From Escherichia coli (GTDB taxonomy: Bacteria > Pseudomonadota > Gammaproteobacteria > Enterobacterales > Enterobacteriaceae), in assembly GCF_045037415.1 (NCBI RefSeq), contig NZ_CP173438.1: a stretch of 64,000 nt of DNA, one strand, 5' to 3'. The position numbers and the translations under genes are program-made. Under the pieces are notes generated by a model. It ran no database searches. It had not been told where the DNA came from and was given only the letters and a program-made list of their open reading frames with translations. Positions 1 to 46,086 of this stretch are shown piece by piece. How positions within the stretch are numbered: position 1 is the stretch's first letter; every line of letters starts with the position of its first letter.

Positions 1-1880
1 TTGCAAAAAATGAAAAAAGTAGTGCGACAGGTATATCTCTGGAAGCGACCACGGGAAATAATTTAACGCTCAATGGCACAACCATAAATGCTCAAGGTAA
101 TAAGAGTTCCAGCAACGGCTCTACGGCAATTTTTGCTCAAAAGGGTAATTTGTTGCAGGGTTTTGACGGTGATGCAACCGACAACATCACCCTTGCTGAC
201 TCAAATATTATTAATGGTGGGATTGAAACAATAGTTATTGCCAAGGAGAATAAGGGAATTCATACAGTCAACCTGAATATTAAGGATGGCTCAATAATTG
301 GGGCGGCTAATAATAAACAAACAATTTATGCCTCTGCTTCGGCACAAGGCGCAGGTTCAGCAACGCAAAATTTAAATTTGTCTGTTGCTGATTCAACCAT
401 CTACTCTGATGTCCTGGCCCTTTCTGAAAGCGAGAATTCAGCCGGTACCACAACAAATGTAAATATGAACGTTGCCCGCTCTTACTGGGAAGGTAATGCT
501 TATACGCTCAATAGCGGCGATAAAGCGGGTAGTGATCTGGATATAAATCTTTCCGATAGTTCAGTCTGGAAAGGCAAAGTTTCAGGGGCAGGAGATGCCA
601 GTGTATCTCTGCAAAACGGGTCTGTCTGGAATGTTACGGGTTCCTCAACTGTTGATGCTCTGGCAGTAAAAGACAGTACGGTTAATATCACGAAGGCTAC
701 AGTCAATACTGGCACGTTTGCTTCTCAAAACGGCACTCTGATTGTTGATGCCTCTTCTGAAAACACTCTGGATATCAGCGGAAAAGCGAGCGGTGACTTG
801 AGTGTTTACAGTGCGGGTTCATTGGATCTTATCAATGAACAAACGGCATTTATTTCTACCGGCAAAGACAGCACTCTAAAAGCCACAGGCACAACGGAAG
901 GTGGTCTGTATCAATATGACCTGACACAGGGAGCTGATGGTAACTTTTATTTCGTAAAAAACACGCATAAAGCATCCAACGCCAGCTCCGTGATTCAGGC
1001 AATGGCAGCTGCTCCGGCTAACGTCGCTAATCTGCAGGCTGACACGCTCTCCGCCCGTCAGGATGCTGTCCGTCTGAGCGAAAATGACAAGGGTGGCGTA
1101 TGGATTCAGTACTTTGGCGGTAAACAGAAACATACCACCGCGGGAAATGCATCCTATGACCTGGATGTAAATGGTGTAATGCTGGGTGGTGATACCCGCT
1201 TCATGACTGAAGATGGTAGCTGGCTGGCCGGTGTGGCGATGTCTTCTGCGAAAGGTGACATGACTACCATGCAGAGCAAAGGTGACACTGAAGGTTACAG
1301 CTTCCACGCTTACCTGAGCCGCCAGTATAACAACGGTATCTTCATTGATACTGCTGCACAGTTTGGTCACTACAGCAACACGGCAGATGTTCGCCTGATG
1401 AATGGTGGCGGTACCATCAAAGCTGACTTTAACACCAATGGTTTTGGTGCGATGGTTAAAGGCGGTTACACATGGAAAGACGGTAATGGCCTGTTTATTC
1501 AGCCATATGCCAAACTGTCTGCTCTGACTCTGGAAGGTGTGGATTATCAACTCAACGGCGTGGACGTTCATTCTGACAGCTATAACTCTGTGCTGGGTGA
1601 GGCCGGTACGCGCGTGGGTTATGACTTCGCTGTGGGCAACGCGACCGTTAAACCTTATCTGAATCTGGCCGCACTGAACGAATTCTCTGATGGCAACAAA
1701 GTCCGTCTGGGTGATGAGTCTGTCAATGCCAGCATTGACGGTGCAGCATTCCGCGTGGGTGCAGGTGTACAGGCTGATATCACCAAAAACATGGGAGCAT
1801 ATGCAAGCCTTGACTACACCAAAGGTGACGACATTGAGAACCCGCTACAGGGTGTAGTTGGTATCAATGTGACCTGGTAA
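1..1880 (+). CDS. Autotransporter adhesin (AIDA-I/Ag43 type), C-terminal passenger repeats plus beta-barrel translocator; gene begins upstream of the window
   Basis: Frame is open from nt 3 to the stop at 1878-1880 (the 150..1880 ORF is its TTG-started tail); Gly/Asn/Thr/Ser-rich repeat passenger, then barrel-like C-terminus ending in an aromatic residue (GINVTW). Confidence 0.7.
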   Translation, partial: AKNEKSSATGISLEATTGNNLTLNGTTINAQGNKSSSNGSTAIFAQKGNLLQGFDGDATDNITLADSNIINGGIETIVIAKENKGIHTVNLNIKDGSIIGAANNKQTIYASASAQGAGSATQNLNLSVADSTIYSDVLALSESENSAGTTTNVNMNVARSYWEGNAYTLNSGDKAGSDLDINLSDSSVWKGKVSGAGDASVSLQNGSVWNVTGSSTVDALAVKDSTVNITKATVNTGTFASQNGTLIVDASSENTLDISGKASGDLSVYSAGSLDLINEQTAFISTGKDSTLKATGTTEGGLYQYDLTQGADGNFYFVKNTHKASNASSVIQAMAAAPANVANLQADTLSARQDAVRLSENDKGGVWIQYFGGKQKHTTAGNASYDLDVNGVMLGGDTRFMTEDGSWLAGVAMSSAKGDMTTMQSKGDTEGYSFHAYLSRQYNNGIFIDTAAQFGHYSNTADVRLMNGGGTIKADFNTNGFGAMVKGGYTWKDGNGLFIQPYAKLSALTLEGVDYQLNGVDVHSDSYNSVLGEAGTRVGYDFAVGNATVKPYLNLAALNEFSDGNKVRLGDESVNASIDGAAFRVGAGVQADITKNMGAYASLDYTKGDDIENPLQGVVGINVTW

Positions 1881-1918
1881 GAATAAAGCAGTCGGTTCCC
1901 CTGTCGACTGTTATACCC

Positions 1919-1947
1919 CCTGCAGGCAGCAGTATGCTGCCTGCAGG
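1919..1947 (+). terminator. Perfect 12-bp inverted repeat (cctgcaggcagc-agtat-gctgcctgcagg) downstream of the autotransporter stop; possible terminator stem-loop
   Basis: Palindrome read directly; no strong T-tract follows. Confidence 0.35.
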
Positions 1948-2063
1948 CTATAAATATCCAGTACTCATGATGCTGGCTTTTTGCTGATATTTACCCTGAA
2001 CATTCCTGATACAGACTATTAATACAACCTTATCTGCGACAGATTTCATTTTCTGGATATATT

Positions 2064-2732
2064 ATGAATGAACAAATCAAACAGGATATCGATCTGATTG
2101 AGATTTTATTTTATCTGAAGAAAAAGATTCGTGTTATCCTTTTTATTATAGCTATCTGTATGGCAATGGTGCTGTTGTTTCTGTATATCAATAAAGATAA
2201 TATAAAAGTGAGTTACAGCCTAAAAATAAATCAGACAACACCAGGCATACTTGTTAGCTGTGATAGCAATAATAACTTTGCCTGTCAGACCACAATGACT
2301 GAAGATGTTATTCAGCGAATTACTACATTTTTTCAGACCAGCCCAGATGTCAAGAACAGAGAAATAAAGCTGGAATGGTCAGGAGATAAGAGAGATTTAC
2401 CAACTGCTGAAGCGGAAATATCTCGCGTGCAGGCGTCTATCATTAAATGGTATACGTCAGAATACCATAATGGCAGGCAAGTTCTCGATGAGATACAAAC
2501 GCCTTCAGCAATTAACAGTGAGCTTTATACAAAAATGATATATCTGACCAGGAACTGGTCACTGTATCCGAACGGTGATGGCTGTGTCACTATAAGCTCA
2601 CCAGAAATAAAAAATAAATACCCTGCTGCCATTTGCCTGGCTCTGGGATTTTTTCTAAGTATTGTGATTTCTGTAATGTTTTGCCTTGTCAAAAAAATGG
2701 TAGATGAATACCAACAAAACTCTGGGCAGTAA
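2064..2732 (+). CDS. ykgH: Predicted inner-membrane protein YkgH (222 aa)
   Basis: 222-aa ORF with N-terminal and C-terminal hydrophobic segments; position next to ykgG and length match my recollection of K-12 ykgH; AT-rich. Confidence 0.65.
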   Translation: MNEQIKQDIDLIEILFYLKKKIRVILFIIAICMAMVLLFLYINKDNIKVSYSLKINQTTPGILVSCDSNNNFACQTTMTEDVIQRITTFFQTSPDVKNREIKLEWSGDKRDLPTAEAEISRVQASIIKWYTSEYHNGRQVLDEIQTPSAINSELYTKMIYLTRNWSLYPNGDGCVTISSPEIKNKYPAAICLALGFFLSIVISVMFCLVKKMVDEYQQNSGQ

Positions 2733-11960: not shown

Positions 11961-14900
11961 TTATTTCTCCTCAGCACCTTCAGTATCTGCAGGAACGGCG
12001 TTAATTGTCACAGTCACGGGTTTCATTTCATACCCTCCATATGTCAAAGAGTTGAATGTGAATGTGTATGTACCTGGCTTGTTGGTACTAAATGTACGCG
12101 TGATTTTCCCGCTCGCGAAATGGTCATTTTTCGACGGCAGGAACTGATAATCCGCCTCTGTCACCCCTTCCGGAGCCTCAATGTCGACCCACATGGTTCC
12201 TCCTACCGGGTTGTTTGCCGAGAACAGGGTTACCGTCAGTGTTGCTGTCGTTACCCCATCCGCCACCAGAGAATGCACATCAGATGTTGCGGCGAGCTCC
12301 GCGTTTTTATCATCCGCGACGAATTTAGATTCGGCAGTTTTCGTCGATTCCTGACCGTCGGCCTGTTCCACTTTCGCCGTGAGTGTATATGTCGCTGCGA
12401 CAGTGGTCGTGGCGGTGAAAATAGCCTGCCCTTGCTCATTCGTTGTCGCCGTCCCATTGGGAGTCAGAACTAAATTTTCCGGGCTGGCAGTCAGCGTCAC
12501 TTCGCTATCTTTCAGCAGGTTGTTATTGGCATCAGTCACCGTAACTTTATACGTCTGTTTGGTTTTGCCGTCCGCCACTGCACGGTTGCCAATCACCTCA
12601 ATACTGGAGATGGTCGCCGTAGTCTTATCGGCCACAAACGTTACAGACTGCGCATTCGAAGGCTGGTCATTTCCTGCTGACGCCGTGATCTCATAGGTTC
12701 CGGCAGTCACGGAAACCACCTGCAACTCCGCTTTCCCCTCATCGTTGGCTTTCACCCACACATTATCGCCTGTAAGCGGCTTGACACCCCGGGGCAGATT
12801 AAAGGTCACCAGGCTCCCTGGAACAGGGTTACCATTTTTATCCTCAACGTTCGCCGTCAGCGTAAAGGCATCTTTGCCGTTTGCCACTTTTTGAACGGCG
12901 GTGTCTACCTGCAGGTTTGCCTGACCGGTGCTGGCATCCGCGTTGAATTTCACCGTGACCGTCTTCTGAGCACCATTCACCGAAGCGGAAATATTGTGTT
13001 CTCCCGCAACCGTTGACATAAGCTCAATGTCCACTTTCCCTGCCGCATTGGTTGTTACTGTATTCCCCGTCTTGCTGGTCACACCCTGCGGTAAAGTCAG
13101 CGTAACTTCTTGCCCCTGCAACGGGTTACCATAGCTGTCCACGACGGTCAGGGTTATCTGGTTAGCAGACTGTCCATTAGCCAGTTGGTTATTAACCTTC
13201 ACTGTCATATCACGAATCTCAGCCTTAGATGCGTCACCTGCAACATTCAGCACCAGTGGCTGAGCAACGGCATTTTGGCCGTTCACTCGCGGCATCACAG
13301 ACAACTGACCCGCGGCAGATCCCAGCGTTAAGGTCGACACGTAGACCCCATTACCTTTCTCTGTCCAGTTTCCTGCTGAAGGACGCTCACTCCCCGTGCT
13401 GGCGGCACCACTAAACACTGGTGCATCTGGCTTCAGCCCGGTGACCGGATTCCCGTACGCATCCTTCACGGTGAAGGTGAGTTCCGTCGTCGTTTTAACC
13501 GTTGGAGTTTTATTGTCCGCAACAAGCGTAGAGTTCGCTGATGACATCTCTCCGGCAATAACAGTCAGCTGCGCGGCTTCGGTGGCTGCAGGCTGGCCGT
13601 TGAAGAGCGGCATGACACGAAGCTCGCCCGTCTTTCCGCCTGTAGTTAACGTAGCAACATAGGAACCGTCACCTTTTTCGGTCCAACTGGAAACGGTCGC
13701 CCCTTCAGAGGCGGTCCCCGTCAAACTTGCCGACAACGAAAGACCACTGATAGCGTTGCCATGCGCATCTTTCGCCACCAGCGTTACGGTTGTGCTTTCA
13801 CCGGCTTTTACGTGATCTTCTGCGACAGAGACTTTCGACTGGTTTGAAGATAATGCATCAGCCACCACGGTTACTTTTGCCGCATTCGCTGCCGCGTCCT
13901 GCCCATTGAGCTTCGGCATAACGTCTAATTCACCCGCCGTAGTGCCGAGAGAAATCTGCGCAATCCAGGTCCCGTCGCCATTATCCGTCCAGCCTGATGC
14001 CGTAGAACCAGCAGCAGCTGCGCCCGATAATGACGGTGCATCCGGATTGAGGCCAGTTACAGGGTTGTCATTAGCATCTTTTGCCGTCCAGATTGCCGTA
14101 ACTGTACCGCCAACCACCGGTTTATCAGGATTCAGGGTGATGGACGAATGTGCTGCATCAAGCGGCCCGGCAACAAACTTCAGCGTTTGTTGTAACGTGC
14201 CCAGCTGATACTGCTCGCTGAAGGCACGCACAACAACGTTCCCGGCACGGGTCGAAGAAACCGTGGCGCTGTAAACCCCTGGTTTTATTTCCGAAATGGC
14301 ACCAACGGTTACACCATTAGTGTCTTGCGGAACAAGTCGCAGGCGGCTGGCTTCTCCCGTCACCGGATTACCCTCGGAGTCCACCGCTGTCAGTGTCAGC
14401 GTGTAGGCTTGCTGACCATCAGCAACCACATCACCTGACGGCTCGTTAGCGCTCAGGGTGGAGTTTGCCACATCCATCATCGTGGCCCGCAGTTCTGCAG
14501 TGACAGTTTTGCTCATGTCATCAACGCTAACAGTAATCGTTGCCTCACCTGACTGCGTTCCGGTAGTAAAGACAGACTGATACACCCCTGATTCAGTTTC
14601 GGTGAACTCACCCAGTGTTGGCTTTGCCTGTGATTTAGTGGCCTTCAGGGTACGAGTCACAATATTTCCAGCCGGTTTGAAGGTTAGTTCAGTCTTGATC
14701 TGATCTTTCATGCCCGTGACTGGCTGACCCTCGGCGTCGCGCAGAGACAGCACCAGCGGCTTTTGCTCATTACCGTTAGCAAGCATTTGAATACGGCTCT
14801 GACCGTCAAGCGTTAACGCCGTACGATCGGCGCTCATACCAGCTCCGCTAATAACCACTTCTGTCTGCACACGTTTCGAGGCATTGCCTTTGTTATCGTA

Positions 14901-16208
14901 GGCAATCGCTGAAATCGCATAATAATTGTCTTTGCCTGCCTGATAAGCCGGGAGCGTCACTTGCCACTGATTGCCCTGCCCCGTAATTTTTCCGCCTGCG
15001 GCCAGCAAAGACGGCGCTTCCCATTGCACATTTTTCAGACCGTGAGTTGCTTTGCTGACCACAAGCCCCAGGGAAACCGTCTGGCCGCCCTTGCCTTCAA
15101 TACGCTCAGGCAGAGCAATACGGATCACTTCAGATTTGCGATACTCAAGAACGATATTGTTATTACGCTCAACCAGGTCATAGCGGCTGCCTGCCAGCAT
15201 TCGACGCTCGCGAATGCTGTCTGTATCGAGTTGTTTTTCCAGAGGTTCGCCAATCCGATAATTAACTTCCAGGCCAAAGCGAGTGTCATTCTCACCACTC
15301 TTGCCCTGCTTATGCCCGGCACTCAGGGTCAGAAGAGGCACTGGCGTGTAATTCACTTCAGCGGTAATCGCATGTGGATCTTTCTGGCGTTTATCTTTAC
15401 CAAACAGCCCGACTTCATCGCCATAATACTGTTCATACATGAGGCTTGCGCCAAGCTGCGGCCAGGCAGGTAAATAGCCCTCAGCACGAATATCCCAGCC
15501 ATTCGCCGGGCGTTCCTGATAATCCTCAACATCCGGCGATTTTTTCCAGCCAGAAGCCCGGATATAACCATTGGCGCTCAGTTTCAAATAATCACGCCAG
15601 TATTCCGCACCAACACCAATGCGGGTATGACTACGGGATAAATCATGATCGATAAAAGTATTCACCCCCGCCATCCAGTCATTTTCTGAAAAATGACGCC
15701 AGCCAAAACCAATATTTGACTGAGTACGATCGTCGGTACGATGTATTGCCCCCTGAGTGAACAACATATTTGTCGGTGTATCATAAATCGGATAAAGCAT
15801 TTCCAGCGAAGAGTCCTTCAGCGAGAAATTTTTATCGACATTCAGTTTGACGCGCGCAGTACCGTATTTCCCGAGCCACTCCTGAATTTCCTGGTTAGCT
15901 TTAGCGGTGGCCATTCCGGTAATAAAGTTACGTGTCGCATCGCTATCTGGCTGACTGCTTAAAAATGTCCCGGCATTAGCGGCAAGCGACGCGACATTTT
16001 TCTCCACGTTATTATTAGCAGTTACCGTAGTATTTTCCATGCTCAACCGTGGCTGAACCGCATGCTGCGCACGTGCTGCCATTACTGGCGTAAAGGTGAC
16101 TGCGAGTGGAAAAAGAACCTGAACAGAGATATTTGCCCACGCCACGCAGCGGGCCAGAACTGAATAACGAAATCGTGGCTGTTTATTGTCTGTTTTATAA
16201 CGTGACAT
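11961..16208 (-). CDS. eaeH: Intimin/invasin-like adhesin EaeH/FdeC, full length (1415 aa)
   Basis: N-terminal MSRYKT...RFRYSVLARCVAWANISVQVLFPLA, inverse-autotransporter barrel region, then many Ig-like repeat modules; K-12 carries only a truncated copy. Confidence 0.85.
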   Translation of the reverse strand: MSRYKTDNKQPRFRYSVLARCVAWANISVQVLFPLAVTFTPVMAARAQHAVQPRLSMENTTVTANNNVEKNVASLAANAGTFLSSQPDSDATRNFITGMATAKANQEIQEWLGKYGTARVKLNVDKNFSLKDSSLEMLYPIYDTPTNMLFTQGAIHRTDDRTQSNIGFGWRHFSENDWMAGVNTFIDHDLSRSHTRIGVGAEYWRDYLKLSANGYIRASGWKKSPDVEDYQERPANGWDIRAEGYLPAWPQLGASLMYEQYYGDEVGLFGKDKRQKDPHAITAEVNYTPVPLLTLSAGHKQGKSGENDTRFGLEVNYRIGEPLEKQLDTDSIRERRMLAGSRYDLVERNNNIVLEYRKSEVIRIALPERIEGKGGQTVSLGLVVSKATHGLKNVQWEAPSLLAAGGKITGQGNQWQVTLPAYQAGKDNYYAISAIAYDNKGNASKRVQTEVVISGAGMSADRTALTLDGQSRIQMLANGNEQKPLVLSLRDAEGQPVTGMKDQIKTELTFKPAGNIVTRTLKATKSQAKPTLGEFTETESGVYQSVFTTGTQSGEATITVSVDDMSKTVTAELRATMMDVANSTLSANEPSGDVVADGQQAYTLTLTAVDSEGNPVTGEASRLRLVPQDTNGVTVGAISEIKPGVYSATVSSTRAGNVVVRAFSEQYQLGTLQQTLKFVAGPLDAAHSSITLNPDKPVVGGTVTAIWTAKDANDNPVTGLNPDAPSLSGAAAAGSTASGWTDNGDGTWIAQISLGTTAGELDVMPKLNGQDAAANAAKVTVVADALSSNQSKVSVAEDHVKAGESTTVTLVAKDAHGNAISGLSLSASLTGTASEGATVSSWTEKGDGSYVATLTTGGKTGELRVMPLFNGQPAATEAAQLTVIAGEMSSANSTLVADNKTPTVKTTTELTFTVKDAYGNPVTGLKPDAPVFSGAASTGSERPSAGNWTEKGNGVYVSTLTLGSAAGQLSVMPRVNGQNAVAQPLVLNVAGDASKAEIRDMTVKVNNQLANGQSANQITLTVVDSYGNPLQGQEVTLTLPQGVTSKTGNTVTTNAAGKVDIELMSTVAGEHNISASVNGAQKTVTVKFNADASTGQANLQVDTAVQKVANGKDAFTLTANVEDKNGNPVPGSLVTFNLPRGVKPLTGDNVWVKANDEGKAELQVVSVTAGTYEITASAGNDQPSNAQSVTFVADKTTATISSIEVIGNRAVADGKTKQTYKVTVTDANNNLLKDSEVTLTASPENLVLTPNGTATTNEQGQAIFTATTTVAATYTLTAKVEQADGQESTKTAESKFVADDKNAELAATSDVHSLVADGVTTATLTVTLFSANNPVGGTMWVDIEAPEGVTEADYQFLPSKNDHFASGKITRTFSTNKPGTYTFTFNSLTYGGYEMKPVTVTINAVPADTEGAEEK

Positions 16209-37038: not shown

Positions 37039-37828
37039 CTTCGACTCCTTCCGGTTTAAATGTGCGGGGAACAGTAATTTGATAATCCGGCTCCAGCCAG
37101 CCACCAGGTATGATTTGCCGCTTTCCCGTACCTGTTTCTATACCGCTTTGATCAAGATACTGAAAATAAGGGTGTCCATTACGCCGGGCAAGGTAAAGCA
37201 TCACCCGGTTGGTTTTAATCGAATGACTGGCGCGAAGCAGTGCCTGCAATTTGCGTGGGCTGAGAAGATTCCCCCCCTGAAACAGAGCATCGGCATGTTC
37301 GAACGAGATCAACGAAGGAACGCCGCAGGCGATCTCATACGCGGCCAGTTCCGGTGCACTGCCTGCTAACTGCCGGTCGCCAATTTTCAGTTCCGTAGTA
37401 AATGACGAGACATCAACGGTAAGGCCCGATGTATACAGCGTGATAAATGTTGCTGATTGTTCGAAGGCAGCAAACCATCCCGGCAGTTTGACGTAAGCCG
37501 GAAGCGCGAGCCAGACCTGCGGCTTACCCGGTTCGGTATAGTGCGCATGGCCCTGAAGCGCAAGGCTGGTTAGCCCCGCCACCCGAACAGGCTTTTCCCA
37601 CTGTGTTTGAAGGCAGTAAACCGCGTCTACCCAATCCGGCTCACGGCCCGTCCGGCAGTACACACCGTGAGCGATGCGCCTGAGCCAGCCATTCTGAACA
37701 TAGAGATAAGAAAGCTTACGATCTACGCCATTGCGGGTAAGCCATGACTGGAGCAGCACCTGACCGGGTAGCGTGTTTTGCATCAACCAGTTTAGATAGT
37801 TTGGCAAATGTCGCTCCTGAATAGACAT
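37025..37828 (-). CDS. AbiEi-like antitoxin/transcriptional regulator candidate (267 aa)
   Basis: Immediately upstream of and overlapping the DUF1814-like gene, the arrangement typical of AbiEi-AbiEii pairs; family assignment from memory, not verified. Confidence 0.45.
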   Translation of the reverse strand: MSIQERHLPNYLNWLMQNTLPGQVLLQSWLTRNGVDRKLSYLYVQNGWLRRIAHGVYCRTGREPDWVDAVYCLQTQWEKPVRVAGLTSLALQGHAHYTEPGKPQVWLALPAYVKLPGWFAAFEQSATFITLYTSGLTVDVSSFTTELKIGDRQLAGSAPELAAYEIACGVPSLISFEHADALFQGGNLLSPRKLQALLRASHSIKTNRVMLYLARRNGHPYFQYLDQSGIETGTGKRQIIPGGWLEPDYQITVPRTFKPEGVEDGSA

Positions 37829-38090
37829 TAGTAGAAATATTTAAACCAGTGTAGGTTCAGGGATACGCCACAGCAAGAAATAGTTTAATGATTCCTCATT
37901 TCGTCCACTTAAAATCGACATTGAGCAAAAAATACAAACTTACCTACATTCAGGCAAAGTGCGACAAATAGACTCGGTCGGTTTAAAGAGAACGTGTAAC
38001 ATAGATGCAAATCGAACAGACATTGTTGCCAGCCGTTCCAAGGTTGTGGGGCGCTGCATGGCCTGAGACGTGATAAATACAGGGAACACA

Positions 38091-41000
38091 ATGAAATTCA
38101 CTGAAGATACCCGAGTAAAAATCCCCGTCATCCTCCACCTGATACGGCTGGGCTACCACTACCTGTCCCTTAAAGAACAACGCTGGGACAAAGAAACCAA
38201 TATCTTCCCTGACCTCTTCACCGCTGCGATTGGCAGAATAAATCCCGGACTTGCGCCAGACGACATCGGACGCCTGTTAAAAGACCTCACGCTGCTTCTC
38301 GACAACGATGATCTGGGCCGCGCCTTCTTCGAAAAACTCAGTGACCGTTCCGGTATCAAACTGATCGACTTTGATAACTTCAACAACAACAGTTTCCATG
38401 TCGTCACCGAACTGACATGCGAAAACGGTGATGAAGAATTCCGCCCGGACATCACGCTGCTGATCAACGGCATGCCGCTAATCTTTATCGAAGTGAAAAA
38501 ACCCAACAATCGGGAAGGCATCGTCGCAGAACGCAACCGCATCAACGAACGCTTTAAAAACCCCAAATTCAAACGCTTCGCCAACATCACCCAGTTCATG
38601 ATCTTCTCCAATAACATGGAGTATGACGACAGCGACCCGGAGCCGATTCAAGGGGCATTCTACGCCAGCAGCTCTTACAGCAACCCGGTATTCAACTACT
38701 TCCGCGAAGAAGAACTCTTCAACCTGACCAACTTACTGAAACCGCTGTCAGAAGAAACCGAAATCGCCGTCCTGAAAGACAACAACCTGGAAGTGATCCG
38801 CACCAACCCGGAATTTCAGACCAACAAAGATCACAACCGCCCGACAAACCGCCTCTGCACCGCGCTGTTGAGCCGGGATCGGCTGGCATTTATCCTGCGC
38901 TATGCGCTGGTGTATGTAGCCGAACCGGGCGGCATCCAAAAACACATCATGCGCTACCCGCAGCTCTTCGCCACCAAAGCGATTGAGCGCAAGCTGAACG
39001 CGGGTGTGAAAAAAGGCATTATCTGGCACACCCAGGGCAGTGGGAAAACCGCATTGGCATACTACAACGTGCGCTTCCTGACAGATTACTTCCAGAATCA
39101 GCAGGTGATCCCGAAATTCTACTTTATTGTCGATCGTCTTGATCTGCTCCAGCAGGCGCAGCGTGAATTCACCGCCCGTGGCTTAATCGTTCACCTTATC
39201 GACTCCCGCGAAGCCTTCACTCGCGATATCAAAGCAACGCAGGCGCTGCACAACCACCACGGCAAAGCGGAAATCACCGTCGTCAACATCCAGAAATTCC
39301 GCGATGACCCGGATGTCGTCACCACCAAAGACTACGACATCAACATCCAACGCGTGTACTTCCTCGATGAAGTCCACCGCAGCTACAACCCCAAAGGGAG
39401 CTTCCTGGCGAATTTAAGCCAGTCGGACACCAACGCCATCAAAATTGGCCTGACCGGTACGCCTCTGCTGGGCACAGACTACAACTCCCGCGACCTCTTC
39501 GGCGACTACATCCACAAATACTACTACAACGCCTCCATCGCCGACGGCTACACGCTGCGCCTGATCCGCGAAGAGATCGCCACCAACTACCGAATGATCC
39601 TGCAACAGGCGCTAAAAGAGGTGGAAGTCAGAATGGGCGATGTGGATCGCAAATACATCTACGCCCATCCCAGCTTTGTTAAACCGATGCTGAACTACAT
39701 CGTCACCGACTTTGCCAAAAGCCGGGGCGCGCTGAATGATGACACCATCGGCGGCATGGTGATTTGCGACAGCTCTGAACAGGCCAAGCAGATGTTTGAG
39801 ATATTCAACACTGACTACGCCGAATCGCCCACCGCCGCCGATGAAGTCTCCGAAGAAATGCCGGTATTACAGGCCGCAGAACCTGCCGCCGTTTACCACC
39901 TCCACGCCAAAGAAACGCGGAAAATCAAACGCGCCGCCCTGATCTTGCACGACATCGGCAGCAAGCAGGAGCGCAAAGAATGGGTGGAGCAATTCAAAGC
40001 GGGCAAGATTGACCTGCTGTTCGTTTACAACATGTTGCTCACCGGCTTCGACGCCAAACGGCTGAAAAAACTCTACCTCGGGCGGGTGATCAGAAAGCAC
40101 AACCTGCTCCAGGCGCTGACCCGCGTCAACCGTACGTACAACCACTTCCGCTACGGCTACGTGGTGGACTTCGCCGACATCCGCCAGGAATTTGACGCTA
40201 CCAACAAAGCCTACTTCGAAGAGCTACAGGCTGAACTTGGCGACGAAATGGAGCACTACTCCCGCCTGTTCAAATCGGCGGAAGAGATCCGCGAAGAAAT
40301 CGAACACATCAAAGACGTTCTGTTTAGCTTCGATACCGAAAACGCGGAAATCTTCACTGACCAGATAAACCAGATCCAGGACCGGGAAACCGCGCTGGCG
40401 CTAAAAAACGCGCTGGCCGACGCCCGCAGCCTGTACAACCTCATCCGCCTCCAGGGCAACACTGAGTTTCTCCAGGCGCTGGATTTCAACAAACTCAACA
40501 TCCTTTATCGCGAAGCCAGCCGCCGCCTCGACTTACTCAACCTAAAAGCGGATCTGGAACAGGGCGTTGACCTCTCCGGCCTGCTGAACCGGGCGCTGGA
40601 AGAGGTGATCTTTGAATTCCATAAAGTGGGTGAAGAAGAGCTGGTACTGGCCGACGAGCTGAAAGAGACGCTGCGCCGCACCCGCGAAGCGCTGGCCGCC
40701 AACTTCGACCAGCAGGACCCGCAGTTCGTCAGCCTGAAAGACGAACTGGAGCGTCTGTTTAAGAAAAAGAAACTCAGCGAAGTCACCCAGCAAGAAATGG
40801 TTGCGAATATCGGCACACTCAATAAAATTCATGGCCGCATCAAAGAGCTAAACCGCCAAAACAACCTGCTGCGCCAGAAATACCGGGGCGACGTGAAATA
40901 CGCGCGTACCCACAAACGCCTGCGCGAGCGCGGCGGCCTGAGCGAGCCGGAGCGTAAAATCTTCGAAGCACTGCTTAGCGTTAAGCTGGATGCAGATGAA

Positions 41001-41189
41001 AAAGTGCTGAACAACAGCCAGATACTGAACAATGAAAGCTATTTTGAGCGGCATATGGAGTCATGCGTCATCACGCACTTTGAGGATGAGCACCATATCA
41101 CTCTGACCTCCAGTGCGGTAAGCGACATCAACCGCCTGATTGTGGCGGAATACCTGAACGAATTTAATACCGGAGCACGAACGTGGTAG
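38091..41189 (+). CDS. hsdR: Type I restriction enzyme R subunit HsdR
   Basis: HsdR N-terminal nuclease-like region (PDITLLINGMPLIFIEVKKP), helicase Walker A (QGSGKT), DEVH box (FLDEVHRS), TGTP, motif VI; start at ATG 38091 after aggga. Confidence 0.8.
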   Translation: MKFTEDTRVKIPVILHLIRLGYHYLSLKEQRWDKETNIFPDLFTAAIGRINPGLAPDDIGRLLKDLTLLLDNDDLGRAFFEKLSDRSGIKLIDFDNFNNNSFHVVTELTCENGDEEFRPDITLLINGMPLIFIEVKKPNNREGIVAERNRINERFKNPKFKRFANITQFMIFSNNMEYDDSDPEPIQGAFYASSSYSNPVFNYFREEELFNLTNLLKPLSEETEIAVLKDNNLEVIRTNPEFQTNKDHNRPTNRLCTALLSRDRLAFILRYALVYVAEPGGIQKHIMRYPQLFATKAIERKLNAGVKKGIIWHTQGSGKTALAYYNVRFLTDYFQNQQVIPKFYFIVDRLDLLQQAQREFTARGLIVHLIDSREAFTRDIKATQALHNHHGKAEITVVNIQKFRDDPDVVTTKDYDINIQRVYFLDEVHRSYNPKGSFLANLSQSDTNAIKIGLTGTPLLGTDYNSRDLFGDYIHKYYYNASIADGYTLRLIREEIATNYRMILQQALKEVEVRMGDVDRKYIYAHPSFVKPMLNYIVTDFAKSRGALNDDTIGGMVICDSSEQAKQMFEIFNTDYAESPTAADEVSEEMPVLQAAEPAAVYHLHAKETRKIKRAALILHDIGSKQERKEWVEQFKAGKIDLLFVYNMLLTGFDAKRLKKLYLGRVIRKHNLLQALTRVNRTYNHFRYGYVVDFADIRQEFDATNKAYFEELQAELGDEMEHYSRLFKSAEEIREEIEHIKDVLFSFDTENAEIFTDQINQIQDRETALALKNALADARSLYNLIRLQGNTEFLQALDFNKLNILYREASRRLDLLNLKADLEQGVDLSGLLNRALEEVIFEFHKVGEEELVLADELKETLRRTREALAANFDQQDPQFVSLKDELERLFKKKKLSEVTQQEMVANIGTLNKIHGRIKELNRQNNLLRQKYRGDVKYARTHKRLRERGGLSEPERKIFEALLSVKLDADEKVLNNSQILNNESYFERHMESCVITHFEDEHHITLTSSAVSDINRLIVAEYLNEFNTGARTW

Positions 41190-42820
41190 AACTGGAATTT
41201 AGAGACAAAACCAAAGCCCTGATCGACAGCCTGAAAAGCATCTGTGCGAACTACGGCCTGGGCAACGACGGTAACGAATTCAAAATTATCACTCAGGCAT
41301 TCCTGTACAAATTCCTGAACGACAAATTCGCTTTTGAGGCCAAACAGAAAGATAAAAGTATCGCCAGCGCCGAAAGCTGGGAAGATGCGCTCAGCGCAAT
41401 GAGCGAAGATCAACTGAAAAAGCTGCAACAGCGGATGGCCCCGGATACCGCCCGCCTGAAGCCGCACCATTTTATTCGTTACTTGTATAACCGACAAAAC
41501 GCAGCGGACTTTGCCAGAACTTTTGACGACACCCTGATGGACATCGCCGCCACCAACAACGACGTCTTCGCGGTCAAAACCGACGGCGGCGCGAAAGTGG
41601 TGCTGTTTGAGCGCCTCAGCCAGTACATCGCCGACGAATCAAAGCGCGATGATTTCTGCCGCGCCATCATCAACAAGCTGGCCGATTTCAGCTTCGAACG
41701 CATCTTCACGCAGAAATTCGACTTCTACGCCACCATCTTTGAATACCTGATCAAAGACTACAACAGCAACTCCGGCGGCAAATACGCGGAATACTACACG
41801 CCCCACGCCGTGGCGCGCATCATGGCGGAAATCCTGGTGCCGAAAGCGCAGCAGGGCGTGGTGCGCAACGTAAGCTGTTACGACCCGTCCGCCGGTTCCG
41901 GCACGCTGCTGATGAACGTGGCGCACGCCATTGGGGAAGATCGTTGCAGCATCTTTGCCCAGGATATCTCGCAGAAATCCTCCAGCCTGCTGCGTCTGAA
42001 CCTGATCCTCAACAACCTGGTGCATTCGATCCCTAACGTTATCCAGGGCAACACTATTCTGCATCCGTTCCACAAGGACGGCGGCGCGCTGAAACGCTTT
42101 GACTACATCGTCTCCAACCCGCCGTTTAAGATGGATTTCAGCGACTTTCGTGACGCGCTGGACAGCAAGGAAAACCAGCAACGTTTCTTTGCCGGGATAC
42201 CGAAAATCAAAGCCAAAGCCAGGGACAAAATGGAGATTTACCAGTTGTTCCTGCAACACATCATTTTCTCGCTGAAACCGGGTGGCAAGGCGGCGGTCGT
42301 CGTGCCGACCGGGTTTATCACCGCGCAATCGGGCATTGATAAAGGCATTCGCGAACATCTGGTGCAAAACAAGATGCTGGCGGGCGTGGTTTCCATGCCG
42401 TCGAATATCTTCGCCACCACCGGTACCAACGTGTCGATCCTGTTTATTGACGCCAGCAACAAAGAGAAAGTGGTGCTGATCGACGCCTCGAATTTAGGTG
42501 AAAAGGTCAAAGACGGCAAAAACCAGAAAACGGTGCTGACGGAGTGCGAAGAAAAACGGATCTGCGAAGCGTTTAACAACAAGTGGAGCGAAGAGGATTT
42601 CTCGGTGGTGGTCAGCTATGACGACATCGCCGCGAAAAATTACTCGTTCAGCGCCGGACAGTATTTTGATGTGAAAATCGAATACACCGACATGACGCCG
42701 GAACAGTTTGCCGCGAAGATGAAAGGATTTACGGAGAATCTGAATAATCTCTTTGAACAGTCGCGCGAGTTAGAAGTGCAAATAAAAATGCAGATGGCAG
42801 ATATCAAATATGAAATTTAA
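41183..42820 (+). CDS. hsdM: Type I R-M N6-adenine DNA methyltransferase HsdM
   Basis: AdoMet motif (DPSAGSGTLL) and catalytic NPPF (IVSNPPFKMDF); overlaps the hsdR stop. Confidence 0.8.
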   Translation: MVELEFRDKTKALIDSLKSICANYGLGNDGNEFKIITQAFLYKFLNDKFAFEAKQKDKSIASAESWEDALSAMSEDQLKKLQQRMAPDTARLKPHHFIRYLYNRQNAADFARTFDDTLMDIAATNNDVFAVKTDGGAKVVLFERLSQYIADESKRDDFCRAIINKLADFSFERIFTQKFDFYATIFEYLIKDYNSNSGGKYAEYYTPHAVARIMAEILVPKAQQGVVRNVSCYDPSAGSGTLLMNVAHAIGEDRCSIFAQDISQKSSSLLRLNLILNNLVHSIPNVIQGNTILHPFHKDGGALKRFDYIVSNPPFKMDFSDFRDALDSKENQQRFFAGIPKIKAKARDKMEIYQLFLQHIIFSLKPGGKAAVVVPTGFITAQSGIDKGIREHLVQNKMLAGVVSMPSNIFATTGTNVSILFIDASNKEKVVLIDASNLGEKVKDGKNQKTVLTECEEKRICEAFNNKWSEEDFSVVVSYDDIAAKNYSFSAGQYFDVKIEYTDMTPEQFAAKMKGFTENLNNLFEQSRELEVQIKMQMADIKYEI

Positions 42821-43101
42821 TTATCTGAAAATTAAAGATGTATGTGATTTTGTCGGAGGAAGTCAACCTCCAAAATCTCAATTTATTTATGTATCTAAAC
42901 CTGGATATGTCAGGTTGATCCAGACGCGTGATTACAAAACGGATGCATTTCCCACGTATATACCAATATCGTCGACGAAGAAATTTTGTGATGAATTCGA
43001 TATTATGATTGGTAGGTATGGTCCCCCAATTTTTCAAATATGTCGCGGATTGAAAGGAGCATATAACGTTGCCTTGCTGAAGGTTAGGTAATGACTCCAA
43101 C

Positions 43102-43605
43102 TTATTGATAGTGTTTTATGTTCAGATAATGCCCGATGACTTTGTCATGCAGCTCCACCGATTTTGAGAACGACAGCGACTTCCGTCCCAGCCGTGCCAG
43201 GTGCTGCCTCAGATTCAGGTTATGCCGCTCAATTCGCTGCGTATATCGCTTGCTGATTACGTGCAGCTTTCCCTTCAGGCGGGATTCATACAGCGGCCAG
43301 CCATCCGTCATCCATATCACCACGTCAAAGGGTGACAGCAGGCTCATAAGACGCCCCAGCGTCGCCATCGTGCGTTCACCGAATACGTGCGCAACAACCG
43401 TCTTCCGGAGCCTGTCATACGCGTAAAACAGCCAGCGCTGGCGCGATTTAGCCCCGACATAGCCCCACTGTTCGTCCATTTCCGCGCAGACGATGACGTC
43501 ACTGCCCGGCTGTATGCGCGAGGTTACCGACTGCGGCCTGAGTTTTTTAAGTGACGTAAAATCGTGTTGAGGCCAACGCCCATAATGCGGGCTGTTGCCC
43601 GGCAT
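43102..43605 (-). CDS. insB: IS1 InsB reading frame (expressed as an InsAB fusion by -1 frameshifting)
   Basis: Canonical IS1 insB sequence including [17 protein letters not shown]. Confidence 0.85.
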
Positions 43606-43799
43606 CCAACGCCATTCATGGCCATATCAATGATTTTCTGGTGCGTACCGGGTTGAGAAGCGGTGTAAGTGAACTGCAGTTGCCATGTTTTACGGCAGTG
43701 AGAGCAGAGATAGCGCTGATGTCCGGCGGTGCTTTTGCCGTTACGCACCACCCCGTCAGTAGCTGAACAGGAGGGACAGCTGATAGAAACAGAAGCCAC
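43524..43799 (-). CDS. insA: IS1 InsA (91 aa)
   Basis: [24 protein letters not shown]... Confidence 0.9.
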
Positions 43800-44975
43800 T
43801 GGAGCACCTCAAAAACACCATCATACACTAAATCAGTAAGTTGGCAGCATCACCGAAGGTTATACCTAAAGAAGGTGTAAGTCGTGATTTTTTATACTAT
43901 TTTTTGAAGCAAGACTCTGTTTTCCAATATGTTGATAAATTATCTGCCAGAACCGGAGGACAAACTGGAGTTGATCTAGTTTCTTTAAAAGAATATCCAG
44001 TCAGGATACCTGAAGAAATTGAATGTCAAGAAAAATTGGTGACTATTCTTAGTGTTATTGATAAAAAAATCGCCCTCAACAACCGCATCAACACGGAACT
44101 GGAAGCGATGGCGAAAACACTGTATGACTACTGGTTTGTACAGTTTGATTTCCCTGATGCCAACGGAAAACCGTATAAAACCTCCGGCGGGAAGATGGAG
44201 TATAACGCCACGCTGAAACGGGAAATTCCGGCAGGTTGGAATGACTCCATTCTTGGTAAGTTTATTGAGTTAGATCGTGGCGTTACTTATAGCAAAGAGG
44301 ATGTTCGAACTCAGGATGATAAAGATACGATAGGCATTCTTCGCGCTACAAATGTGACGGGAAATAATGTTGATATTGATGATTTAGTCTTCATTCCTTC
44401 TAGTAGAGTAAACGTTAATCAAATGCTAAATAAATTTGACATATTGATCGTGATGTCAAGTGGTAGTAAGGAGCATGTAGGGAAGAATGGCGTGTATTAT
44501 TTCGAAAAAAAAACATGCATTTGGCGCATTTTGTTCAAAAATTACACCCGTCAGAAAATACAGATATTTTATAAATACATTCCTGCAATCGAAATGGTTT
44601 AAGTCTTATATAAACAATCAGTGCTTGGGAACTAATATTAATAACCTGACCAATACGCATATCACTAATTGTGAAATCATATGCCCCACTCCTGATGTTG
44701 TGGCGTTATTCGAGAATAAAATGATGCCAATTTATAATAAACTGGCATCAAACACTCAAGAGAATAGTCATTTAATCCAACTCCGCGACTGGCTCCTCCC
44801 TCTACTTATGAACGGACAGGTCACGGTCAAATAATCCCCGGCGTGGTTTTGCGAGGCGCATTCCAGATCCGCATTGCGCCGCACTCACCGCAGCAAAACC
44901 GCTTGCCGTTCATAACCGATCGCAGTATCTTTCTCCCGCGCCTGCAAAATCAGGCGTCGGGATTAGCCTCCTGAA

Positions 44976-45167
44976 AACCGTTACAGGCGACACTTGACGC
45001 ACCAGCGTCTTTTTTGTGTCGTGCGTTCGGCTACACCTCAATGGCGGGCCGGGCGGGGGCGTCGCAAGACGCGCCGGTTTCCTGTAACGCCGGTAAGGCT
45101 AACCCCGTCCGGTTCCGCCCCCATGAGATTAGCCTCTCTAGTGGCGGACATAATAAACCGTTACAGG
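44976..45167 (+). repeat. Three copies of the motif CGTTACAGG (direct at 44978-44987 and 45158-45167, inverted at 45081-45089), with a second repeated block gattagcctc at 44961 and 45127; upstream of the orphan ORF
   Basis: Read directly from the sequence. Confidence 0.5.
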
Positions 45168-45176
45168 AGACGCCCT

Positions 45177-45647
45177 ATGGCTACAATCCTCATCTCTGAC
45201 TGCGATTTACTCGATCTATTGTCCGCTCCCTTCAATGCCACCACGGATTTCACCGTCCTGGCCGACTACTGCGCCCGCTTCGCCGAAACCCTGATAGAAA
45301 CCGACGATCCGGCGCTGCGGCTGGCGCTCTGCGGACGGCTTCACGCGGCTCTTGCGCTATTGCAACCCACGCTGCACGACCCCATCCCGCCGCATCTGAT
45401 TGAAAGCCTGACCGTTGATACCCTTCCCGCCACACCAGAGCACTTTATTTCCGAACCAGATTCCTTGTGCGAATACTGCCTCGCGCTGCTCCAGCTACTG
45501 CTGGAACGTCCAGCAGAGCCAAAAACGGAACAAACCCTGACCGGGCTTCTGTGTGAGCTGGTCTGGAATTTCACGGAAGGACTCAAATCCCCGCGCTGGC
45601 TGCGTACCGCCGACGGCGTAAAATTTATCAGTGAGGTGGCCGCATGA
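45177..45647 (+). CDS. Hypothetical protein, 156 aa, no recognised domain
   Basis: ATG 45177 preceded by SD aggag; the longer 217-aa ORF is a GC-rich upstream extension with no SD; Leu/Ala-rich acidic protein. Confidence 0.4.
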
Positions 45648-45792
45648 TGCAACAGGACTGACATTCCGCCGACATTATTGCGGTGCTGAAAAAGCGGGGA
45701 ACGCCTCTGGCGGCACAGAGAAAAACTCATTGCGGAAGCGCTGTAAATATCGCCAGAAATCATCTGGTCCTCAAGGTACTTTGATAGCAAAG

Positions 45793-45879
45793 GCAAGCTG
45801 GCTGGTTCAGTCCGGAGTCTCTCTTCTTGCACTTAAAGAGATGGGAGGATGGGAAACTCTTGAAATGGTTCGTCGTTAG
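45793..45879 (+). pseudogene. Remnant of a tyrosine-integrase 3' end (...[28 protein letters not shown]), copy B, next to intact thrW
   Basis: Integrase C-terminal signature truncated by TAG at the conserved Tyr codon position. Confidence 0.45.
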
Positions 45880-46010
45880 GCTCACCTTTCAGCCAGGCAT
45901 TTCACCGGGCACGCGAGCAAAATCGATGCGATTATAAGTCGCAATGGCACAAATACGGCACAAGAGGAGAACGTGGTGTATTTAAATATGGGGTAACTAC
46001 TTGATTTTAA

Positions 46011-46086
46011 TGGTGCCGATAATAGGAGTCGAACCTACGACCTTCGCATTACGAATGCGCTGCTCTACCAACTGAGCTATATCGGC
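46011..46086 (-). tRNA. thrW: tRNA-Thr (anticodon CGU), 76 nt including CCA
   Basis: Reverse complement reads GCCGATATAGCTCAGTTGGTAGAGCAGCGCATTCGTAATGCGAAGGTCGTAGGTTCGACTCCTATTATCGGCACCA; cloverleaf arms and CGT anticodon identifiable. Confidence 0.9.

Follow-up and report, generated by a model that had tools for sequence, protein, structure and literature searches.

Which gene runs off the left edge of this stretch of Escherichia coli DNA, next to ykgH and at the place where K-12 has its bet genes, and did the gene arrive there at the expense of the bet operon? The stretch as a whole, 64 kb in length, is referred to here as the window. An earlier note on its first lines had proposed an adhesin autotransporter, perhaps EhaA-like, lying in an islet or a replacement at this junction. 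We find it very highly probable that positions 3 to 1880 hold the distal four-fifths of hyxB (also called upaB), an adhesin gene much studied in E. coli of the urinary tract and the last gene of the PAI-X islet, which is inserted in the betA–ykgH spacer, and that its product is an autotransporter of the classical type Va. Publications already cover the gene, its ligands, the solved structure of the CFT073 homologue, and the islet with its prevalence, and the identification has little importance beyond annotation; it does correct the first reading on the bet genes and on EhaA, and assigns the window, whose closest matches are ST131-type (O25:H4) strains, to a genome that carries PAI-X. The features are collected in Table 1.

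Table 1. Features at the left end of the window, with positions, strand and the basis of each assignment
Feature	Position	Strand	Basis and remarks
hyxB/upaB, 3′ part (1,878 nt)	3..1880	+	Codons 139–763 plus stop; reading frame still open at the window edge
Passenger (α) domain, portion	3..1049	+	Match to 6BEA ends at full-length residue 487, window residue 349
β-barrel translocator domain	1098..1811	+	PF03797, amino acids 366–603
Imperfect hairpin just 3′ of the stop	1884..1915	+	11-nt arms, 82% complementary; in the MFE fold; islet DNA
Perfect inverted repeat	1919..1947	+	Arms 1919–1931 and 1935–1947; 13 nt each; 3-nt loop
PAI-X right junction	1953..1954	.	K-12 homology restarts at 1954
Terminator-like hairpin	1958..1985	+	Stem 1958–1976, then CTTTTTG; terminator scan
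ykgH	2064..2732	+	ORF; RefSeq annotation; K-12 counterpart b0310; core-genome flank of the islet

Identity and integrity of the truncated gene

The reading frame is open from nucleotide 3 to a TAA stop at 1878–1880 and comprises 625 codons; the window begins too far downstream to include codons 1–138 of hyxB (414 nt), the promoter or the remainder of the islet. Its translation is the last 625 amino acids of the 763-amino-acid HyxB of strain SK1144, from which the window differs by 2 mismatches in 18,100 overlapping bases, and RefSeq names the product of the matching gene ‘outer membrane autotransporter HyxB’. A megablast search of 5,426 complete E. coli genomes with window positions 1–2100 gave a query coverage of at least 80% in 1,571. 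Many genomes were 100% identical at the DNA level over the 2,100 bp, and the matches were all annotated as hyxB and then ykgH, the neighbour that the earlier note had named. The allele is one that is borne by many ST131-type (O25:H4) genomes.

A sequence search of the Protein Data Bank (PDB) returned entry 6BEA, ‘Autotransporter protein UpaB’, with E = 2.5e-256 over the passenger. UpaB is the c0426 product of UPEC CFT073 and is named HyxB in UTI89 and EC958; hyxB and upaB are one gene (Phan et al. 2013, PMC3789825). The two proteins have in common the gene, the locus, the last place in PAI-X beside ykgH and an identical β-domain, and 729 of 763 amino acids (95.5%) are the same. They differ by 34 substitutions and a 2-amino-acid deletion, mostly within the N-terminal 110 residues, which are encoded upstream of the window; the part encoded within the window carries 11 of the substitutions, none of them in the β-domain. 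In a survey of UpaB, 95% of alleles were more than 89% identical (Paxman et al. 2019, PMC6488583). An orthologue of CFT073 UpaB should be highly identical over its full length and should be the last PAI-X gene, adjoining ykgH, and we found both; the ykgH side of the gene is visible in the window, and the hyxA–hyxR–ipbA–betA side is known only from near-identical genomes.

Because near-identical genomes have an intact hyxB, we infer that the gene is intact in the source genome too. The opposite view, that a lesion upstream of the window has made hyxB a pseudogene and that no adhesin is made, draws on several observations: codons 1–138 lie beyond the window edge; hyxB is occasionally inactivated by IS1 or ISEc52 in a few genomes that are otherwise 100% identical (NZ_CP124436.1 and NZ_OZ039827.1); and in O157:H7, hyxB is internally deleted, with ipbA and hyxR as pseudogenes. 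Against it, the window's 625 codons show no interruption and match exactly those of an intact 763-amino-acid gene, and among the matches listed hyxB is uninterrupted in 28 of the 30 genomes at 100% identity. A disrupted gene is very improbable here.

PAI-X, the bet operon and EhaA

In K-12, betA ends 212 bp from ykgH. A BLAST comparison of K-12 with the islet locus shows 5,989 extra bp at a single point of this spacer, with K-12 DNA collinear on both flanks; the adhesin islet that had been suspected at the junction is PAI-X, which K-12 lacks. Genomes without the islet match the megablast query from 1954 to 2100 only, which supports the right junction independently, and 1,953 bp at the right end of the islet fall in the window. 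The order in SK1144 is betT, betI-betB-betA, ipbA (= fimX/hbiF), hyxR, hyxA, hyxB, ykgH and ykgGFE, and CFT073 has the same order. The PAI-X of UTI89, CFT073 and EC958 matches in its four genes, in their order and in the betA–ykgH insertion site, and we found no difference from it. PAI-X was described as fimX plus hyxRAB and as present in 24 of 50 genomes (Phan et al. 2013, PMC3789825), and upaB was reported in 34% of 3,017 genomes (Paxman et al. 2019, PMC6488583); our counts place the prevalence at 29–35% of the 5,426 genomes, in line with these figures.

The locus has some of the properties of a genomic islet. It is present or absent at an exact junction and its base composition is atypical, with a GC content of 31–41% in its left part versus 52–60% in the bet genes. 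Flanking repeats or an integrase, further properties of such islets, were not found: no direct or inverted repeats were detected at the islet termini, a target duplication would amount to at most a 2-bp AT ambiguity at the junctions, and the only recombinase in the islet, IpbA/FimX, is annotated as a DNA invertase, although it has a Phage_integrase domain. IpbA/FimX is reported to invert fimS and hyxS (for hyxS, PMC6083910).

Imperfect inverted repeats of 33 nt surround 240 nt in the gap between ipbA/fimX and hyxR (locus L001, 13507–13812, upstream of the window). These repeats correspond to the published hyxS invertible promoter element (PMC6083910), and the pair is the only long inverted repeat in the islet. 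We also observed a decayed PAI-X in O157:H7 strain 146N4 (locus L003, 6000–9843), in which a frameshift disrupts ipbA, internal stops interrupt hyxR and ykgH, and hyxB has lost an internal segment.

The phrase ‘where K-12 has the bet genes’ gave the position of the adhesin gene correctly and erred in implying that the bet genes are absent. We looked for the operon in genomes that carry the islet, and betT and betIBA are intact directly upstream in all those opened (SK1144, CFT073 and O157:H7). A left-junction query of 1.2 kb across the betA–islet boundary, at a coverage of at least 80%, detected this junction in 1,801 of the 5,426 complete genomes. The junction and the intact operon together therefore indicate insertion rather than replacement. 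There is no bet DNA within the 64-kb window because the bet genes lie upstream of position 1.

This missing bet DNA, and the mere 212 bp that part betA from ykgH in K-12, are what could suggest that the islet had replaced the operon. That the operon is intact in SK1144, at 2 mismatches in 18.1 kb from the window, as well as in CFT073 and O157:H7, that K-12 DNA is kept to the left and to the right of one insertion point, and that the betA–islet junction occurs in more genomes (1,801) than does the full-length 3′ part of hyxB (1,571) make a replacement exceedingly unlikely. The islet was cleanly inserted and the bet operon was not replaced.

The suggestion that the gene is EhaA or a close relative fares no better, and we give it almost no credence: EhaA of O157:H7 is likewise a type Va adhesin autotransporter of E. 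coli encoded near the bet operon, the two genes lying within about 10 kb of each other around it, but it is 1,327 amino acids long (HyxB, 763), has its gene in the pdeL–betT interval across the operon from PAI-X, aligns with HyxB by BLASTP over the barrel only (21% identity, E = 1e-8), the passengers showing no significant similarity, and falls in group 8 of a published phylogeny in which UpaB is in group 12 (PMC9289746). On the barrel-only identity and the pdeL–betT locus, we rejected EhaA as the identity of the gene. An intact ehaA is present between pdeL and betT in O157:H7 strain 146N4 (locus L006, 25277–29260).

Autotransporter domains and ligand-binding residues

The claim that the frame is the 3′ part of an autotransporter had been staked on a barrel domain being found by an HMM search, and one was found. 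Pfam PF03797 (autotransporter β-domain) matches amino acids 366–603 with E = 9.3e-48 and 163.6 bits against a cut-off of 26, and TIGR01414 covers amino acids 226–625 with E = 2.6e-69. The closest solved barrel in the PDB sequence search is that of BrkA (3QQ2, E = 7e-23). The C terminus, ...VVGINVTW, ends in an aromatic residue, the outer-membrane insertion signature; such a terminal residue is typical of classical autotransporters. At the other end, the full-length gene of a near-identical genome encodes an N terminus of MKNSKAFYRSALATAIVMALSAPAFA/AD, signal-peptide-like by eye, which lies upstream of the window.

The passenger qualifies as β-helical by its near-identity to the crystallized UpaB passenger, a 13-turn right-handed β-helix in which extended strands and loops form a groove (PMC6488583). 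By the match to 6BEA, the portion encoded in the window includes the β-helix with its fibronectin- and glycosaminoglycan (GAG)-binding faces and the autochaperone region. A Sec signal peptide would carry HyxB/UpaB into the periplasm, the C-terminal 12-stranded barrel would insert in the outer membrane and export the passenger, and the β-helix would remain at the cell surface.

Ag43 (Flu) and AIDA-I have the same secretion architecture as HyxB/UpaB, and the assignment of the adhesin to the AIDA-I type agrees with the placement of UpaB in that class (Paxman et al. 2019, PMC6488583). Membership of the self-associating Ag43/AIDA-I group is a separate matter, and we ruled it out: neither protein is among the PDB sequence matches at E ≤ 1e-3, the UpaB and Ag43 passengers are 12% identical and UpaB, unlike Ag43, does not self-associate (PMC6488583).

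In UpaB, glycosaminoglycans bind in the groove and fibronectin type III domains on the opposite face; these activities and the role in bladder colonization are established for the CFT073 protein only (PMC6488583). We compared the residues listed in that study after correcting an 11-codon offset, the original c0426 annotation starting at an upstream TTG. In the window allele, 10 of the 11 residues of the fibronectin patch (S1 plus D375) are kept, the sole change being D119G, encoded upstream of the window, and the GAG groove (G1 plus K343) keeps all of its residues (8 of 8). The window allele probably works like the CFT073 protein, as this conservation of sequence suggests, and fibronectin and GAG binding, known from the literature, would then aid colonization of the bladder.

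The 11 changes from CFT073 UpaB within the part encoded in the window include two of note. One is Y187S (window positions 108–110), in the hydrophobic patch of the GAG groove; the other is a tight run of changes at residues 230–235, TAGNKT to IAKENK (T230I/G232K/N233E/K234N/T235K; window nucleotides 237–254). Recombination could have brought in the 230–235 cluster as a patch, or the cluster could mark a variable surface loop. Y187S and this cluster could conceivably alter the ligand specificity or antigenicity of the ST131-type allele; we allow this a slim chance, which is a joint estimate with that for a second conjecture, on the palindrome described below.

Hairpins downstream of hyxB and neighbouring loci

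A perfect palindrome had been noted beyond the stop codon as 12 bp in length. It is real, and its arms are 13 nt long and 100% complementary. The window contains two perfect inverted repeats of at least 13 nt with a loop of up to 10 nt, and 20 block shuffles contained none; the 13-bp palindrome is not a product of chance. The other such repeat, AAAAATGGCGC...GCGCCATTTTT at 33142–33174 between ykgJ and yagU, is a canonical bidirectional intrinsic terminator.

When positions 1875–2000 are folded as RNA, three hairpins form in succession (z-score −5.0 relative to shuffled sequences). The second, the 13-bp hairpin, is islet DNA and ends 6 bp short of the right edge. Because CTATAAAT comes next rather than a U-run, it is not a canonical intrinsic terminator. 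It is invariant in an alignment of the window, CFT073 and O157:H7, and covariation is uninformative for a hairpin that does not vary across the three islet variants aligned. The hairpin is single-copy in 1,880 of the 5,426 genomes. The third hairpin is ancestral DNA common to K-12, in which the betA stop is about 110 bp upstream of it.

Scanning the islet and the hairpin region against Rfam identified no family; a mir-6511 match on the hairpin is meaningless (27 bits against a gathering score of 87, E = 0.22). A dispersed repeat family was also discarded as a source of the palindrome, which occurs as one copy in the window and once per E. coli genome; matches with 2 mismatches occur in the window at chance level.

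Going by folding and position only, the 13-bp hairpin would stabilize the 3′ end of the hyxB transcript or assist termination, and hyxB transcripts would end at the displaced ancestral terminator, the third hairpin with its U-run. The 13-bp palindrome might do more than shape the transcript end: in an islet with no target duplication, terminal repeats or integrase, it might be a relic or a recognition element of the inserter, or else a protein-binding operator between hyxB and ykgH. This is the second conjecture, and the same low estimate covers it and the one on the ligand specificity or antigenicity of the allele.

Beyond the islet, YkgH has a weak resemblance to the Wzz N-terminal segment (PF02706, amino acids 8–52, E = 7e-4, 20.3 bits, below the cut-off of 25.5) and to TIGR01006 (E = 0.0095), and a C-terminal hydrophobic segment gives it a topology resembling that of a short polysaccharide co-polymerase. 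The islet genes hyxA and hyxR modulate O-antigen chain length, according to a published report (Phan et al. 2013, PMC3789825). That ykgH sits next to them may be coincidence.

Farther along, an island at about 34405–46086 adjoins tRNA-Thr(CGU), the tRNA gene lying at 46011–46086 on the minus strand and a 62-bp repeat of its 3′ part at 34405–34466. In the closest genomes this island carries integrase pseudogenes, IS1, an AbiEi/AbiEii toxin–antitoxin and a type I restriction–modification system. SK1144, otherwise near-identical, has a different island of 24 kb at tRNA-Thr(CGU), with another type I restriction–modification system and a type I Zorya system.

The window contains further adhesin loci at about 11961–16208 and about 25500–32300: the inverse autotransporter gene fdeC (eaeH) and the ecpRABCDE common-pilus operon, both assigned by correspondence with SK1144, with 98% identity over the ecp stretch.
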